Below are positions 877-5,136 of a DNA stretch of 16,650 nucleotides, piece after piece (the stretch's first letter is position 1; each line of letters begins with the position of its first letter). The position numbers and the translations under genes were made by a program. Origin of the DNA: Frankiales bacterium (GTDB lineage Bacteria > Actinomycetota > Actinomycetes > Mycobacteriales > SCTD01); NCBI GenBank assembly GCA_025965935.1, contig JAOPVZ010000272.1, forward strand, positions 1 to 16,650. Reading direction: 5' to 3'. Under the pieces are notes generated by a model. The model was not told where the DNA came from. It searched no databases and worked only from the letters and a program-made list of their open reading frames with translations.

Positions 877-960
877 GCCCCTGTCGACTAGCGGTCGATG
901 TCTTCGGACTTTTAATCCGACGCGGAAACGCCATCGTAGGTTCGAATCCTACCGGGGGCA
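877..960 (+). tRNA. tRNA-Lys(UUU)-like gene, 84 nt, with an atypically long 15-nt variable region. It could be functional, a pseudo-tRNA or an att-site remnant.
   Basis: Hand-folded cloverleaf. The acceptor stem GCCCCTG(877-883)/CGGGGGC(953-959) has 7 bp with one G-U, and the discriminator is A960. There is no encoded CCA. U8 is present. The D-stem GAC(T)/(T)GTC carries an AGCGGTCGA loop containing GG. The anticodon stem TCGGA(904-908)/TCCGA(916-920) carries the loop CUUUUAA with U33, anticodon UUU (911-913) and A37. The T-arm GTAGG-TTCGAAT-CCTAC is at 936-952. The variable region 921-935 (CGCGGAAACGCCATC) can form a 3-bp stem capped by a GAAA tetraloop. Confidence 0.55.
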
Positions 961-1011: not shown

Positions 1012-1512
1012 GTGAAGAAATGCGGGACGTGCCACGAGATCAAGCCGCTCGACGATTTCAACCGCCTGCGGGGCGCGCCGGACGGTCGCCAGCCGCGGTG
1101 CCGCGACTGCTGCAAGGCTTGGTACGCCGCAAACAGCGCACAGCACAAGGCCAACGTGGCGCGCCGCACCCGCCAGGTGCTCGCGCTCTACTACTCCCGG
1201 GTCAGGGAGTACTTCGCTACGCACCCTTGCGTCGACTGCGGGGAGACCGACATCCGGGTGCTCGAGTTCGATCACCGGCCGGATGAGGTGAAGCTGGCGG
1301 ACGTGGCGCAGCTGATCAGTCGCCGGCAGCCGTGGTCGATCGTGCAGGCGGAGATCCTCAAGTGCGACGTGCGCTGCAGCAACTGCCACCGGAGGTTGAC
1401 CGGCGCGCGCGCGAACTCCTGGAGGCAGCGCGCCTACGAGGAGGACATCAAGCGGACGAGGGAGCTCGTGAGGAACCGGTTGCAGACGTTGTTCCCGAAA
1501 GCCTCCATGTGA
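1012..1512 (+). CDS. HNH endonuclease (166 aa) with an N-terminal Cys4 zinc ribbon.
   Basis: ORF MKKCGTCHEIKPLDDF...CRDCCKAWY (CxxC...CxxC ribbon) followed by CVDCGETDIRVLEFDHRPDEVK...CSNCHRR, which is the HNH ββα-metal pattern (C-x2-C ... DH ... N ... C-x2-C-H). GTG start at 1012 (only the ORF-track convention renders it M), with no obvious SD. The gene sits 52 bp downstream of the tRNA-like gene. The local GC content is visibly lower than the surrounding genes. Confidence 0.8.
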   Translation: MKKCGTCHEIKPLDDFNRLRGAPDGRQPRCRDCCKAWYAANSAQHKANVARRTRQVLALYYSRVREYFATHPCVDCGETDIRVLEFDHRPDEVKLADVAQLISRRQPWSIVQAEILKCDVRCSNCHRRLTGARANSWRQRAYEEDIKRTRELVRNRLQTLFPKASM

Positions 1513-1533: not shown

Positions 1534-1848
1534 TCAGAGACGGCTGACGAGATCCCGCACCCGGCCGTCGATGTCGTCGACGGTCGCGCGCACCACCTCG
1601 AGTGGCTGCTCCTTTGGGTCGTCGACCGTCCAGCCCTCGTAGCGCTTGCCAGGGAGACCGGGCAGGTCTTGCCGCAGCCCATCGTCACGACGACATCAGC
1701 CTCCTGGACGCCCTCGACGGTGGGCGTGGTCCTCGACGGGCAGCCCACGCTCCGCGAGCACCTGCGCGACCGCAGGGTAGCTACGTGCGACCTCGGACTG
1801 CGACTGGCCGGCCAGAACAGCCGTGATGACAAGGCGACGCTTCGACAT
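1534..1848 (-). pseudogene. Decayed paralog of the LMW-PTP-type arsenate reductase ArsC. It is frameshifted and lacks the Cys-X5-Arg P-loop.
   Basis: About 85% nucleotide identity to the intact arsC at 4762-5136 over about 250 nt. The segments encoding AVAQVLAERGLPVEDH, TVEGVQEADVVVTMGCGKTCPV and GKRYEGWTVDDPKEQPLEVVRATVDDIDGRVRDLVSRL* are conserved but lie in two different frames. Relative to the intact copy there is an 11-nt deletion near 1722 and a 1-nt deletion near 1650. Reading from the ATG at 1846-1848 gives MSKRRLVITAVLAGQSQSEVARSYPAVAQVLAERGLPVEDHAHRRGRPGG and then a TGA stop after 50 codons. The N-terminus has no catalytic Cys. Confidence 0.75.
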
Positions 1849-1886
1849 CCCGCAGCCTGCGAGTCACCGCTATGCCGAAGACCTGC

Positions 1887-1942: not shown

Positions 1943-1987
1943 CTACCGGGGGCACTCTCGTGATCGCTCAGAGTGGCCCCCTACCGG
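1943..1987. promoter_or_regulatory. Near-perfect 11-bp inverted repeat with an 11-bp spacer, flanked by direct CTACCGG copies. It is a candidate operator or stem-loop.
   Basis: The left arm GGGGGCACTCT (1948-1958) pairs with the right arm AGAGTGGCCCC (1970-1980) at 10 of 11 positions. The spacer is cgtgatcgctc. CTACCGG occurs at 1943-1949 and again at 1981-1987 in the same orientation. No U-tract follows on either strand, so a protein-binding site is more likely than an intrinsic terminator. Confidence 0.5.
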
Positions 1988-2155
1988 ACGAGCGCCGCCG
2001 GAGGGAGGATCTAGGCAGTTCACCTGCGCACGGTGGATCACCGGGTAACGCGAAGTACGTGATGCCGTCGTGCATGGCTCATGTTGAGTGCGCGGCTCAC
2101 AGTCGCGTCCGGTCACGTCGCCGGTGGCGGGCCCGACCCCAAGGGGGGTGGATCG

Positions 2156-3214
2156 GTGGCCGAGGAGACCAGGTCGCAGCCTGTCCTGACGCCGCTCACC
2201 GAGGCGGCGATCTTCCTGGTGCTGACGGTCTCCACGGGCGGCGAGGACGTCGTGCGAGGGCTCCTTGCCGACTCCGCCGGGATCGTGCGTTCCGTCGGGT
2301 TCCGCGATCCTGACGGGGAGCTGTCCTGCGTCTTCGGGATCGGGTCGAACGCCTGGGACCAGCTCTTCGGCGGACCCCGCCCGGCCGAGCTGCACCCGTT
2401 CCGCGAGGTCGTCGGTGCGCGGCACACGGCAGTGTCGACGCCTGGGGACCTGCTGTTCCACATCCGCTCCCGCCGCATGGATCTCTGCTTCGAGCTGGCC
2501 GGGCACCTCGTCGGCCGGCTCCCCGGCGCGGCCGGTGTCGTGGACGAGGTCCACGGGTTCAAGTACTTCGACGAGCGCGACCTGATGGGCTTCGTCGACG
2601 GCACCGAGAACCCGACCGGCCCGTCCGCCCTGCCCGCAGCGACCATCGGTGACGGCGACCCGGGCTTCACCGGTGGCAGCTATGTGATCGTGCAGAAGTA
2701 CCTGCACGACCTCCCCGCGTGGAACGCGATCTCGGTCGAGGAGCAAGAGCGCGTCATCGGCCGGACCAAGCTCACCGACATGGAGCTGCCGGATGACGTG
2801 AAGCCGGCCAACTCGCACGTCGCGCTCAACACGATCGTCGACGAGAACGGCGAGCAGCTGCAGATCGTCCGCGACAACATGCCGTTCGGGCACGTCGGAG
2901 AAGGGGAGTTCGGCACCTACTTCATCGGCTATGCCGCGAGCCCCGCGGTGACCGAGCAGATGCTGGCCAACATGTTCATCGGCAGGCCAGCCGGCAACAC
3001 CGACCGCATCCTCGACTTCTCGGTCGCCGTGACCGGCTCCCTGTTCTTCGTCCCCACAGCGGACTTCCTCGAGAACCTGCCGCCTCGACCAGGCTCCGAC
3101 GCGACGGTCGACGCCGGCAGCAGCGCGCCTGCGCCGGTCGCGGCCACCCCCGACGACCCCCGACCCGATCACTCGCTGCGGATCGGCAGCCTGAGAAGGA
3201 GCTCCTCACCATGA
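2156..3214 (+). CDS. Dye-decolorizing (DyP-type) peroxidase, an encapsulin cargo protein with a C-terminal targeting peptide.
   Basis: Contains the GFVDGTENP DyP signature. It is conserved along its length with DyP family proteins (...SQPVLTPLTEAAIFLVLTV..., ...ELHPFREVVGARHTA..., ...DEVHGFKYFDERDLMGFVDGTENP). The C-terminal ...DHSLRIGSLRRSSSP matches the encapsulin cargo-loading consensus (SLxIGSLK/R). I chose the GTG at 2156 as the start because it is preceded by the RBS AAGGGGGG (2141-2148). The ORF-track start at 2081 is probably an over-extension. The stop codon overlaps the encapsulin ATG (ATGA). Confidence 0.9.
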   Translation: MAEETRSQPVLTPLTEAAIFLVLTVSTGGEDVVRGLLADSAGIVRSVGFRDPDGELSCVFGIGSNAWDQLFGGPRPAELHPFREVVGARHTAVSTPGDLLFHIRSRRMDLCFELAGHLVGRLPGAAGVVDEVHGFKYFDERDLMGFVDGTENPTGPSALPAATIGDGDPGFTGGSYVIVQKYLHDLPAWNAISVEEQERVIGRTKLTDMELPDDVKPANSHVALNTIVDENGEQLQIVRDNMPFGHVGEGEFGTYFIGYAASPAVTEQMLANMFIGRPAGNTDRILDFSVAVTGSLFFVPTADFLENLPPRPGSDATVDAGSSAPAPVAATPDDPRPDHSLRIGSLRRSSSP

Positions 3215-4011
3215 ACAACCTGCATCGCGAGCTCGCACCCATCTCGGACGCGGCCTGGACCGACATCGAGGACGAGGCGCGCCGCACCTTCACGCTGCAC
3301 GTCGCCGGCCGTCGTACCGTCGACGTGCTGGGCCCGTCCGGCGAGCAGCTGTCTGCCGTCGGCACCGGGCACCAGAGCGAGCTCGAGCCGCCCTATCCCG
3401 GCGTGCGTGCCAGGCGTCGCGAGATCGCCCCGATCGTGGAGTTCCGGGTCCCGTTCCGTGTCTCCCGCGACGCCGTGGACGATGTCGAGCGCGGCGCGAA
3501 TGACTCCGACTGGCAACCGGTCAAGGACGCCGCGAAGGAGCTCGCGTTCGCCGAGGACCGCGCCGTGATCGACGGGTTCCGGGCGGGCGGCATCACCGGG
3601 CTGCGTCCGGCCTCGTCCAACCCTCAGCTGAGCCTGCCAGCCGATCCGCGCGAGTACCCGACCGCCCTGGCGCAGGCGATGAGCGCGCTGCGCTTCGCGG
3701 GTGTGGGCGGTCCCTACAGCCTGCTGCTGTCCGCGAACCTCTACACGGAGGTCGTCGAGACGACGGACCACGGCTACCCGATCCACGAACACCTCATGCG
3801 CGTCATCGGCGACGACGGCGAGATCGTCTGGGCCCCTGCCATCGACGGCGCAGTCCTGCTGTCCACCCGCGGCGGCGACTTCCAGCTGCACCTGGGGCAG
3901 GACACCTCGATCGGCTACCTCTCCCACGACGCCCGCTCGATCGAGCTGTACGTCGAGGAGTCGCTGGCCTTCGTCGTCAACACCACTGAGGCGGCCGTCA
4001 ACCTGGTCTGA
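3211..4011 (+). CDS. Family 1 encapsulin shell protein (Linocin M18 / Cfp29-like).
   Basis: The N-terminus MNNLHRELAPISDAAWTDIEDEARRTF and internal motifs (VPFRVSRDAVDDVERGANDSDWQPVKDAAKELAFAEDRAVIDGF, SLLLSANLYTEVVETTDHGYPIHEHL, IVWAPAIDGAVLLSTRGGDFQLHLGQD) are characteristic of encapsulins. An RBS GAAGGAG sits at 3195-3201. The gene is translationally coupled to the upstream DyP gene. Confidence 0.95.
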   Translation: MNNLHRELAPISDAAWTDIEDEARRTFTLHVAGRRTVDVLGPSGEQLSAVGTGHQSELEPPYPGVRARRREIAPIVEFRVPFRVSRDAVDDVERGANDSDWQPVKDAAKELAFAEDRAVIDGFRAGGITGLRPASSNPQLSLPADPREYPTALAQAMSALRFAGVGGPYSLLLSANLYTEVVETTDHGYPIHEHLMRVIGDDGEIVWAPAIDGAVLLSTRGGDFQLHLGQDTSIGYLSHDARSIELYVEESLAFVVNTTEAAVNLV

Positions 4012-4202: not shown

Positions 4203-4628
4203 ATGGCACTGTCCGACAAGCTCAGCGATCTGGCTGCCCGGTCGAAGAAGACCGAGGACCTGGCAACTGCAGCCCGGCAGAAGGACCGCGCGAAGCTCGA
4301 GAGCCAGCGCGACAAGTTGAACACGTCGATCGCTGCCAACAACGCCAAGGCGAAGGAGCGCGCCGCGTCCGCCAAAGGCGAGACGCAGCAGTGGTGGAAC
4401 GACGCACGCTCGTCGATGGACAAGCGGTTCGCCACGGTGCGTGCCGCGGCAGACGAGCGGCGCAGCGAGCGGGACATGAAGAAGGCCGAGCGCCAGGCTG
4501 AACAGGCTGAACAGGACGCCGCGGACGCCATCGACTGGGCCGTCTACGTCCTCGACCAGGCCGAGTACGCCGTCATCGACGCGGTCGTTGCCCGCGCCGA
4601 CGCAGACGACCTGGCGCGCAGCGGCTGA
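4203..4628 (+). CDS. Hypothetical coiled-coil protein (141 aa), Ala/Arg/Glu/Lys-rich, with no recognisable catalytic motif.
   Basis: ATG at 4203 preceded by a strong RBS GAGGAGAAGGG (4183-4193). The sequence MALSDKLSDLAARSKKTEDLATAARQKDRAKLESQRDKLNTSIAANNAKAKERAASAKGETQQWWNDARSSMDKRFATVRAAADERRSERDMKKAERQAEQAEQDAADAIDWAVYVLDQAEYAVIDAVVARADADDLARSG is predicted helical or coiled-coil with an acidic C-terminal segment. It has no encapsulin targeting peptide. It sits 190 bp downstream of the encapsulin gene. Confidence 0.6.
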   Translation: MALSDKLSDLAARSKKTEDLATAARQKDRAKLESQRDKLNTSIAANNAKAKERAASAKGETQQWWNDARSSMDKRFATVRAAADERRSERDMKKAERQAEQAEQDAADAIDWAVYVLDQAEYAVIDAVVARADADDLARSG

Positions 4629-4761: not shown

Positions 4762-5136
4762 TCAGAGCCGGGTGACGAGCTCTCGCACGCGAGCGTCGAT
4801 GTCGTCGACGATCGCGCGCACCACATCGAGTGGCAGGTCCTTTGGGTCGTCGACCGTCCAGGCCTCGTAGCGCTTGCCGGGGAAGACCGGGCAGGTCTCG
4901 CCGCAGCCCATCGTCACCACGACATCAGCCTCCTGGACGCCGTCGACGGTGAGCAGCGTCGGGACGTGGTCCTCGACGGGAAGCCCGCGCTCGGCGAGCA
5001 CCTGCGCGACCGCAGGGTTCACGCCGCTGCCGGGCTCGGAGCCGGCGGACCGGGCGTCGAGTCCGTAGTGGCGGGCGAGTACCTGGGCAGCTACGGAGCG
5101 GCCGCTGTTGTGGATGCAGGCGAAGAGCACGATCAC
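4762..5136 (-). CDS. arsC: Arsenate reductase ArsC of the low-molecular-weight phosphatase family. A thioredoxin- or mycothiol-coupled type is likely.
   Basis: The N-terminus (M)IVLFACIHNSGRSVAAQ carries the Cys-X5-Arg-Ser P-loop of LMW-PTP-type ArsC, and a downstream GCGETCP motif carries the additional cysteines. GTG start at 5134-5136, preceded by the RBS GAGGGG. The start overlaps the stop of the upstream MIP gene (GTGA). It is the last gene of an arsR-aqp-arsC operon. Confidence 0.85.
   Translation of the reverse strand: MIVLFACIHNSGRSVAAQVLARHYGLDARSAGSEPGSGVNPAVAQVLAERGLPVEDHVPTLLTVDGVQEADVVVTMGCGETCPVFPGKRYEAWTVDDPKDLPLDVVRAIVDDIDARVRELVTRL

Follow-up and report, generated by a model that had tools for sequence, protein, structure and literature searches.

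A tRNA gene with a lysine anticodon and a long variable arm in an actinobacterial contig, and its relatives in phage tRNA arrays

The DNA analysed here is contig JAOPVZ010000272.1 of a Frankiales bacterium, which is a metagenome-assembled genome (MAG). The window is the whole contig of 16,650 bp (16.65 kb), and statements on its genome cover this contig. Positions 877–960 (+ strand) hold an 84-nt tRNA gene with the anticodon UUU, the discriminator A73 and a variable region of 15 nt, as compared with 5 nt in canonical tRNA-Lys. It is almost certainly a functional tRNA gene, and it probably encodes an elongator tRNA in which a long-arm (type II) body carries the identity marks of tRNA-Lys. The textbook rule is that in bacteria only the Leu, Ser, Tyr and Sec tRNAs have long arms, and annotation and identity rules assume so. 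If the assignment is correct, a long-arm tRNA-Lys is part of a cellular translation system against this rule. The window gene belongs to a family of long-arm tRNA-Lys genes that is often met in the tRNA arrays of phages and seldom in cellular genomes. Such a family would mean that tRNA body plan and amino-acid identity can be uncoupled in nature.

Structure and detection of the tRNA at 877–960

ARAGORN reports a single tRNA in the window, a tRNA-Lys(ttt) at 877–961 with the anticodon at tRNA position 35. The Rfam tRNA model RF00005 is matched over its full length (1–71) with 55.2 bits (gathering score 29, E 1e-9). A covariance model of the long-arm family (R1) gives 98.6 bits, and orthologues are present in relatives. 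The initial annotation, made from the letters alone, had described a cloverleaf with a 7-bp acceptor stem, a canonical T loop and a CUUUUAA anticodon loop, and had named a missing program hit or a very low covariance score as what would speak against it. The ARAGORN call and the high Rfam score bear the description out. The same annotation placed about ten extra nucleotides in a GAAA-capped mini-hairpin, which is found again as an insertion in the Rfam alignment, in the minimum-energy fold and as a covarying helix in about 100 sequences.

The acceptor stem (877–883/953–959) has 7 bp including a U882-G954 pair, and G1-C72 is present. The D arm (886–902) consists of a 3-bp stem, GAC/GUC (G10-C25, A11-U24, C12-G23), a U13-U22 mismatch and an 11-nt loop, AGCGGUCGA. 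The anticodon arm is at positions 904–920 and displays the loop CUUUUAA (909–915) with the anticodon UUU at 911–913. The variable region (921–935) starts with a C, followed by a stem strand GCG (922–924), a GAAA loop, the return strand CGC (929–931) and the linker CAUC. The T arm (936–952) has a 5-bp stem and the loop UUCGAAU. The discriminator is A960 (A73), and CCA is not encoded. The Rfam alignment places 11+1 inserted bases in the variable region and has one non-standard pair, 13:22. This architecture is that of a type II tRNA: the variable region exceeds 10 nt and contains a paired hairpin, and the D arm combines a stem of 3 bp with an enlarged loop. Canonical short-arm bacterial tRNA-Lys has a 5-nt variable loop and a 4-bp D stem, in place of the 15 nt and 3 bp found here.

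The minimum-energy fold has a delta G of -34.6 kcal/mol (z = -2.8) and reproduces four of the five helices, i.e., the acceptor, anticodon, variable and T helices. At the D arm this fold shows an alternative 6-bp hairpin, which was rejected. The canonical D stem is preferred because it is kept by a compensatory change at 11:24 in relatives, whereas the alternative hairpin is broken in relatives of the L087 type (loci fetched for comparison are designated by L numbers).

Actinobacterial relatives and the phage-borne family

Six close relatives of the window tRNA are present among the genome-collection matches. Five of them (L087, L091, L092, L100 and L112) come from MAGs of Frankiales, Mycobacteriales, Actinomycetales and unclassified Actinomycetota. 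They are 84–86 nt including the discriminator, do not encode CCA, and each is a lone tRNA amid ordinary genes. The sixth (L110, which is L071 in IMG/VR) is on a 186-kb contig of 60% G+C with a tRNA array, has an encoded CCA and is probably from a phage.

In the window the tRNA lies beside a partial thiolase gene (2–673, - strand, Pfam Thiolase_N). A thiolase gene also adjoins the tRNA in L091 (96% identity), L100 (90%) and L092 (84%), as determined by tblastn. The tRNA occupies the equivalent position next to two additional thiolase orthologues, L142 (96%) and L143 (88%), and scores 55.4 Rfam bits in each. Long-arm orthologues are found in at least seven relatives (L087, L091, L092, L100, L112, L142 and L143), with the thiolase neighbor in five of the seven. 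The tRNA thus appears to be fixed at a chromosomal position beside the thiolase gene and to be inherited vertically in the clade. The initial annotation had allowed that orthologous long-arm copies in relatives would make the arm simply a lineage feature. Such copies are present in seven relatives, but the feature is not confined to one lineage.

A comparison of the window tRNA with the seven relatives shows compensatory changes at three pairs: 11:24 (A-U/U-A), 27:43 (U-A/C-G/G-C) and 51:63 (A-U/G-C). The length of the variable stem alternates between 3 and 4 bp, with the 4-bp form GCGC/GCGC in L092. As judged from these alignments, the tRNA structure is under purifying selection in actinobacteria. 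The neighboring host tRNA-Glu, tRNA-Asp and tRNA-Phe genes are mostly without an encoded CCA too, so the missing CCA at 877–960 is the local norm. The D arm of the host tRNA-Glu (L142 7802–7874, L143 8422–8494), UCGUCUAGCGGCCCAGGACUCC, nearly equals the long-arm tRNA-Lys D arm, UCGUCUAGCGGCCGAUGACUCC; this likeness could represent convergence on one structural solution or gene exchange.

Phage genomes searched by blastn yield matches that span the variable arm ungapped. These are in annotated tRNA-Lys genes of 87–88 nt from Rhodobacter phage RcXuper, Ruegeria phage V10 and Xanthomonas phage XacN1. The distance between anticodon loop and T loop is 20 nt in the window tRNA and in these three phages, compared with 10 nt in a canonical tRNA. 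A family pattern (CTYTTAATCC, a gap of 16–26 nt, GGTTCRAATCC) is matched by 74 stretches of IMG/VR viral contigs and, in 185,579 species-representative genomes, by only 59 stretches. Of the latter, about 15 lie outside any tRNA and match by chance, and a few belong to archaeal tRNA-Lys genes with introns; all of these were excluded. Among the pattern matches ARAGORN recognizes 109 well-formed long-arm tRNAs with the anticodon UUU or CUU, 101 of them distinct. The variable region is 15 nt in 47 of these tRNAs and 17 nt in 25, with a range of 11–21 nt. The arm nearly always consists of one base, a 3–5-bp stem with a GAAA/GCAA-type loop, the return strand and then CAUC or CACC. The discriminator is U73 in about one third of the family and A73 in the rest; G73 is never present with a Lys anticodon. 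The initial annotation listed a genuinely unusual tRNA of phage or island origin among its possibilities, and the family is indeed overwhelmingly phage-borne.

The family covariance model was built from 12 sequences. It has 102 matches of 66 bits or more, and pair statistics were taken on 97 distinct rows. Standard pairs make up 98.0% of the pair cells, compared with 68.1% in shuffles. The covariation score is 0.772 versus 0.181 in shuffles (none of 500 shuffles reach 0.772), and it is 0.10 or less with slid partners. The variable-arm helix is paired in 97.9% of the cells and has changes on both sides at all three of its pairs; the D stem is 95% paired, also with both-side changes at three of three pairs. 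Covariation is seen in all five helices.

A metagenome scan with the exact anticodon-arm and variable-arm sequence found three loci, all of them low-GC phage-like arrays, and no further actinobacterial relatives. The three loci (L152 1319–1408, L153 5502–5591 and L154 80–169) are freshwater metagenome arrays of 40–46% G+C with a 90-nt long-arm tRNA-Lys that includes an encoded CCA. The anticodon arm and variable arm (CGGACTTTTAATCCGACGCGGAAACGCCATC) are identical to those of the window tRNA, and the acceptor, D and T arms differ. A tRNA-Lys(CUU)-like sequence of an Acidimicrobiaceae genome (L126 126–224, - strand), in which a tandem duplication of AATCCGCAGGTTC extends over anticodon stem and variable loop, has no relation to the long-arm family and probably represents a damaged gene.

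No published account of a long-arm tRNA-Lys or tRNA-Asn was found, though older work on phage T5 may have escaped the search. Individual members are already in GenBank as 'tRNA-Lys' or 'tRNA-Asn' with the long arm apparently unremarked, which is a weak sign of novelty.

Amino-acid identity, rival explanations and role of the arm

The identity marks of tRNA-Lys, U34, U35 and U36 together with A73, are present in the window tRNA (911–913 and A960). Lysine identity resides in the anticodon triplet and A73, and other tRNA bodies acquire this identity when UUU is transplanted into them (PMC9976931). The discriminator matters little for a class I lysyl-tRNA synthetase (LysRS) (PMC9976931), and this tolerance might explain the U73 members in phages of alphaproteobacteria. 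Two arrays, L127 with 35 tRNAs and L086 with 34, have 20 isotypes each. Their sole Lys tRNAs are long-arm forms with CUU and UUU, and they have an ordinary tRNA-Tyr too. A short-arm tRNA-Lys is also carried by 39 of 107 loci, often with the complementary anticodon, and in many arrays a long-arm UUU is paired with a canonical CUU, or vice versa. Long-arm tRNAs with other anticodons have G73 in Asn (12/12) and Trp (4/4), C73 in His (2/2), U73 in Gly (3/3) and A73 in Met (4/4), i.e., the discriminator tracks the amino acid of the anticodon. An anticodon swap in the tRNA-Asn of phage T5 yields an amber suppressor (T5 GenBank record), and this tRNA contributes to the rescue of E. coli from the PARIS nuclease (PMC12409363), which shows that the long-arm design works in translation.

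It is likely that the window tRNA is charged with lysine and used in translation. The tRNA would be transcribed, processed and provided with CCA post-transcriptionally, as the neighboring host tRNAs must be. LysRS would charge it via the anticodon UUU and the discriminator A73, and in this organism it would decode the rare codon AAA, plus AAG by wobble, as lysine. The extra hairpin would project from the elbow as in Leu, Ser and Tyr tRNAs, and for this reason EF-Tu and the ribosome should tolerate it. The window genes have 5 AAA and 101 AAG among 4,940 codons (AAA is 0.1%), and two of the five AAA codons are in the HNH gene described below. Because AAA is rare, its decoder is a tRNA in low demand, and this low demand may ease its replacement.

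As a bacterial tRNA-Tyr the sequence fails in the anticodon, which is UUU and not GUA; A73, G1-C72, U35 and the long arm are present. As a bacterial tRNA-Ser it fails in A73 and in the 3-bp variable stem, since the tRNA-Ser of the arrays have longer stems and almost always G73. Bacterial tRNA-Leu is marked by A73, a Leu-type D loop and a tertiary core, and its identity in E. coli is independent of the anticodon. The window tRNA has A73, and at the level of sequence its D loop, AGCGGUCGA, is unlike the GGAAYGGYAGAC of array tRNA-Leu.

Among known kinds, the bacterial type II tRNAs, above all tRNA-Tyr, are close to the window tRNA: they share with it the 7/5 acceptor branch, the D stem of 3 bp in which 13:22 is not a Watson-Crick pair, and the RAG-YGG-YCGAA type of D loop. 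The tRNA-Tyr of the same arrays have a 3–4-bp variable hairpin followed by 3–4 unpaired bases before the T stem, as well as A73 and G1-C72, and are the closest to the window tRNA in arm length and 3' linker. However, the family has UUU or CUU instead of GUA, the arm ends in a conserved CAYC and usually has a GAAA/GCAA cap, and about one third of the members have U73. Descent of the family from tRNA-Tyr was considered and dropped; with the anticodon loop removed, there is no single parent isotype, and the distances to long-arm tRNAs for Ser, Asn, Tyr and Leu are nearly the same.

Two phage tRNA-Asn genes have the same kind of body. The tRNA-Asn(GUU) of T5 (83 nt, L145 374–456) has a similar arm, GUC-GAAA-GAC-AAC, and scores 68.7 bits with the family model. 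The tRNA-Asn of phiKZ (87 nt, L146 373–459) scores 83.7 bits, and its arm, UGGCGAAAGCCCACC, recurs without a difference in long-arm Lys tRNAs of L005 and L116. Unlike the window tRNA, both have GUU and G73 (asparagine identity), and they are phage genes in tRNA regions, not a single chromosomal gene. The annotated phage tRNA-Lys genes of 87–89 nt (RcXuper, V10, XacN1 and Serratia phage BF) are in the same family, have the same arm design and are up to 81–87% identical to the window tRNA over 52–67 nt. They differ in that they encode CCA, sit in arrays and have other acceptor and D stems, and some have CUU or U73.

Long variable arms with unexpected anticodons are found in other systems. The nev-tRNAs of nematodes have a long arm with anticodons of normally short-arm isotypes but are eukaryotic and reported to be leucine-charged against the anticodon (PMC3333845), whereas here the discriminator follows the anticodon. 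The allo-tRNAs are irregular tRNAs of bacteria and phages, known from metagenomes, with long variable arms and non-Ser/Leu anticodons. Their acceptor/T branch is 8/4 or 9/3, a tetraloop caps their long D stem, the discriminator is G73 or U73, and their identity is probably serine (PMC5389517). The window tRNA is not an allo-tRNA, as it has a 7/5 branch, a 3-bp D stem, an 11-nt D loop and A73.

Phage arrays also carry long-arm Asn, Thr, Met, Trp, Gly, His, Gln, Ile, Asp and Cys tRNAs, and in most the discriminator fits the anticodon. Long-arm tRNAs of other isotypes are located, for example, at L021 315–398 and 741–824, L059 4229–4312, L063 3922–4007, L036 3671–3757, L046 421–503 and L031 8411–8495. 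The converse is seen in L023, L072, L127, L086 and L106, where ARAGORN calls tRNA-Leu genes of 75–78 nt without a long arm. The same arrays have very long calls, Ala(ggc) of 101 nt and Gln(ttg) of 90 nt, which may contain introns or be miscalls.

Several points weigh against a lysine-accepting elongator tRNA. Without the anticodon loop, the body is no nearer to Lys than to Ser, Tyr, Leu or long-arm Asn tRNAs, and the combination of a long arm, A73, G1-C72 and U35 is compatible with part of the set that specifies tyrosine in bacteria. The variable hairpin could hinder a class II LysRS, since synthetases of class II come to the tRNA on the side of its variable loop. As to the family, the pattern fixes CTYTTAATCC and GGTTCRAATCC, so that conservation at these positions is uninformative and members with other loops are missed; the alignment behind the pair counts was fitted to the model.

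The thiolase site adds to these points. L144, L149 and L151 (thiolase identity 81–82%) are without a tRNA-Lys next to the thiolase gene. L138, L139 and L140 (thiolase 87%) have instead a 72-nt tRNA(UUU)-like gene between the Ada and thiolase genes (L138 3752–3823, - strand, identical in the other two). In L148 (thiolase 84%) a close copy (332–403, - strand) is 2.6 kb upstream of the thiolase gene, beyond a sensor kinase gene. ARAGORN calls both as tRNA-Lys. The 72-nt gene has four intact stems, AA at positions 8–9, the D loop UAAGGUG and an odd T loop, AUCCAUA in L138 and GUCAGUA in L148; the Rfam tRNA model gives no match at E ≤1 (L138) or E ≤10 (L148). Between the two copies the anticodon stem has changed in a compensatory way (AGGAC/GUCCU versus AGGGC/GCCCU), which suggests that the gene is maintained. 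No canonical tRNA-Lys(UUU) is present at the thiolase site in these more distant relatives, which have either nothing or the aberrant 72-nt gene there. This argues that the tRNA at this site may be dispensable or special in at least some relatives, and it leaves unproven the argument that the window tRNA is the positional orthologue of a housekeeping gene.

These observations bear on a rival explanation in which the tRNA accepts lysine but functions outside translation or at its margin, as a lysine donor or as a regulator that limits AAA-containing genes. A donor might serve MprF/LysX-type lipid lysylation, or peptide or cell-wall synthesis. The model for a regulator is bldA, which limits UUA-containing genes in Streptomyces. 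Two kinds of non-canonical tRNA(UUU) at the locus in sister lineages, and none in others, would suit a dispensable or special role, as would the rarity of AAA. Staphylococcus tRNA-Gly is a precedent for a dedicated non-proteinogenic tRNA. Another is tRNA-Other of Bacillus cereus, as cited in PMC5389517. However, the T arm and T loop are canonical, the 7/5 acceptor branch bound by EF-Tu is intact, phage arrays use the same design for their Lys tRNAs, and no transferase gene is located nearby in the window. A role of this kind is unlikely.

Still less probable is a recoding or mistranslating tRNA, of which the nematode nev-tRNAs and Streptomyces tRNA-ProX are examples. The tRNA would be a substrate of the tyrosyl- (or leucyl- or seryl-) tRNA synthetase, and AAA/AAG would be read partly as Tyr, Leu or Ser. 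The long-arm Ser, Asn, Tyr and Leu tRNAs are its nearest bodies outside the anticodon loop, the tyrosine identity set of bacteria includes A73, G1-C72 and U35 (PMC9976931), and the cost of misreading a codon as rare as AAA would be small. On the other hand, the 20-isotype arrays have long-arm tRNAs as their only Lys decoders plus a separate tRNA-Tyr, and the tracking of the anticodon by the discriminator would be unexpected if one synthetase charged all of them via the arm. Compared with the tRNA-Ser and tRNA-Leu genes of the same arrays, the variable stem of 3–4 bp is shorter than in tRNA-Ser, without the G73, and the D loop is unlike the one in tRNA-Leu. The U73 of about one third of the family fits none of Tyr, Leu and Ser.

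A non-functional relic (a pseudogene, a variable loop disrupted by an insertion or a leftover att site, all raised by the initial annotation) is very improbable. In its favor are the missing CCA, the adjoining pseudogene and HNH gene, the latter of mobile appearance, and a 3'-end repeat 1 kb away, but the tRNA is full length with all stems paired and a score well above the Rfam threshold, it is conserved in relatives with compensatory substitutions, its D arm is of the long-arm type as well and its variable arm is a conserved, covarying helix in about 100 sequences, nearby host tRNA-Glu, Asp and Phe genes mostly do without CCA also, and the actual att-like remnant is a separate 14-nt copy of the 3' end at 1943–1956.

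For an elongator tRNA-Lys with a long-arm body, the origin was probably a phage. An ancestor of the Frankiales/Mycobacteriales group would have acquired the gene, which was then inherited vertically beside the thiolase gene. The role of the arm may be related to tRNA-directed immunity. The PARIS effector AriB cuts the E. coli tRNAs for Lys(UUU) and Thr(UGU) as well as Asn(GUU), and it seems to read features away from the cleavage site (PMC12409363). Phage arrays hold long-arm Lys, Asn and Thr(UGU/CGU) tRNAs, and the overlap of these isotypes with the PARIS targets suggests, tentatively, that an arm on the normally armless Lys, Asn, Thr and other tRNAs is a widespread phage counter-defence and that one actinobacterial lineage domesticated such a tRNA as its chromosomal AAA decoder. 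In this speculative scheme the remodelled body would be unrecognized by host nucleases and toxins directed at the canonical Lys, Asn or Thr tRNAs (PrrC, RloC, PARIS AriB and Schlafen-type enzymes), and the synthetase would still read the anticodon and discriminator. Several other isotypes are also long-armed and the loci were selected for having a long-arm Lys tRNA, which makes the idea doubtful.

It offers a testable account of an escape of phage tRNAs from tRNA-directed immunity by means other than point mutations in the anticodon loop. The chromosomal copy in uncultured Frankiales/Mycobacteriales would represent the adoption of such a tRNA by a cell for a rare codon. For annotation, long-arm tRNA-Lys genes should be spared pseudogene flags and isotype mis-typing. 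Long-arm tRNAs may also serve as orthogonal-looking scaffolds.

The HNH gene, the 3'-end repeat and other features of the window

A terminator-like hairpin with a T-rich tail (974–991, + strand) is directly 3' of the tRNA; a consensus scan gives 1 observed versus 0.1 expected, a pattern match alone. The consensus scan found no sigma-70 promoter upstream of the tRNA, which has little bearing on a high-GC actinobacterium. An open reading frame (ORF) at 1012–1512 (+ strand) represents a phage-type HNH endonuclease gene with a CxxC...DH...CxxCH motif and similarity to PHROG 2255 'HNH endonuclease' (E 4e-29); Pfam and NCBIfam gave nothing useful for it. The only homologue among the fetched loci (37% identity) belongs to L110/L071, a phage-like array of tRNAs that also has a long-arm tRNA-Lys(UUU). 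There, 7 bp separate the end of the homologue from a tRNA-Lys(CUU) gene downstream of it. The HNH gene has no counterpart in L091, L092, L142 and L143. It is followed by an arsC copy (1537–1776, - strand) that is frameshifted and N-terminally truncated, and represents residues 41–124 of the intact arsC (4762–5136, - strand, identified by its translation). The two are 90–93% identical in direct repeats D1–D3 and 88% identical over 259 nt by blastn, and tblastn also detects the copy. Both the HNH gene and the decayed arsC had been recognized in the initial annotation.

A 14-mer made up of the final 12 tRNA bases and two bases of flank, CTACCGGGGGCACT (949–962), recurs exactly at 1943–1956 (+ strand, repeat family D15), 994 bp downstream. 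The second copy is the distal boundary of the insert with the HNH gene; this gene and the frameshifted arsC copy are between the two 14-mers. The bases that follow the second copy, CTCTCGTGATCG, resemble the tRNA 3' flanks of L143 and L092. When 21 nt of the tRNA 3' end were searched for with 3 or fewer mismatches allowed, the tRNA itself was the sole match. The arrangement is indicative of an insertion or duplication of about 1 kb that carried the HNH gene and used the tRNA 3' end as its junction. Site-specific integration, homing, or tandem duplication followed by insertions are candidate events. The HNH gene and its surroundings are the recent insert, and not the tRNA, because relatives without the HNH gene hold the tRNA at the same thiolase site. 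The suggestion of a foreign origin for the locus thus fits the HNH insert and not the position of the tRNA. The G+C content around the tRNA is lower, as had been noted, but the difference is marginal (0.656–0.668 versus about 0.70–0.73 elsewhere in the window).

The DNA on the 3' side of the tRNA varies between relatives. In L092 there is nothing before the Ada gene, and in L143 arsC follows after about 110 bp. L091 and L142 have an alcohol-dehydrogenase-like gene. LMWPc genes are called in L142 and L143, and the arsC-tRNA synteny in L143 was determined by blastn. In the window this DNA amounts to about 3.8 kb and includes the HNH ORF, the partial arsC, a pair of genes for a DyP peroxidase and an encapsulin (2081–4011) and a further ORF. 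The segment 2081–4628, which comprises this pair and an ORF at 4203–4628, has no counterpart between tRNA and arsC in L091, L092, L142 and L143, and it represents a lineage-specific insertion at the same hotspot.

Two small features are located near the repeat. Positions 1779–1850 (- strand), upstream of the arsC fragment and on the same strand, read MSKRRLVITAVLAGQSQSEVARSY. This resembles the helix-turn-helix with which a transposase or recombinase begins, and may have been left by the rearranging element. A 24-nt tandem duplication (CCATTCCGATGTCC...) at 1893–1940 is directly before the 3'-end repeat.

The G+C content of the window is about 70%, and its gene content is ordinary chromosomal. 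The remaining genes include an ars cluster (arsC, a MIP-family channel and ArsR), a glyoxalase, an Ada/AlkA fusion, a GH3 glycosidase, an SDR protein, an Lrp-type regulator and a 2-oxoacid:ferredoxin oxidoreductase. In the thiolase region of a relative, L144, a c-di-GMP-I riboswitch (1909–1997, 55.1 bits) precedes a gene for a B12-binding/sigma-70-like regulator.

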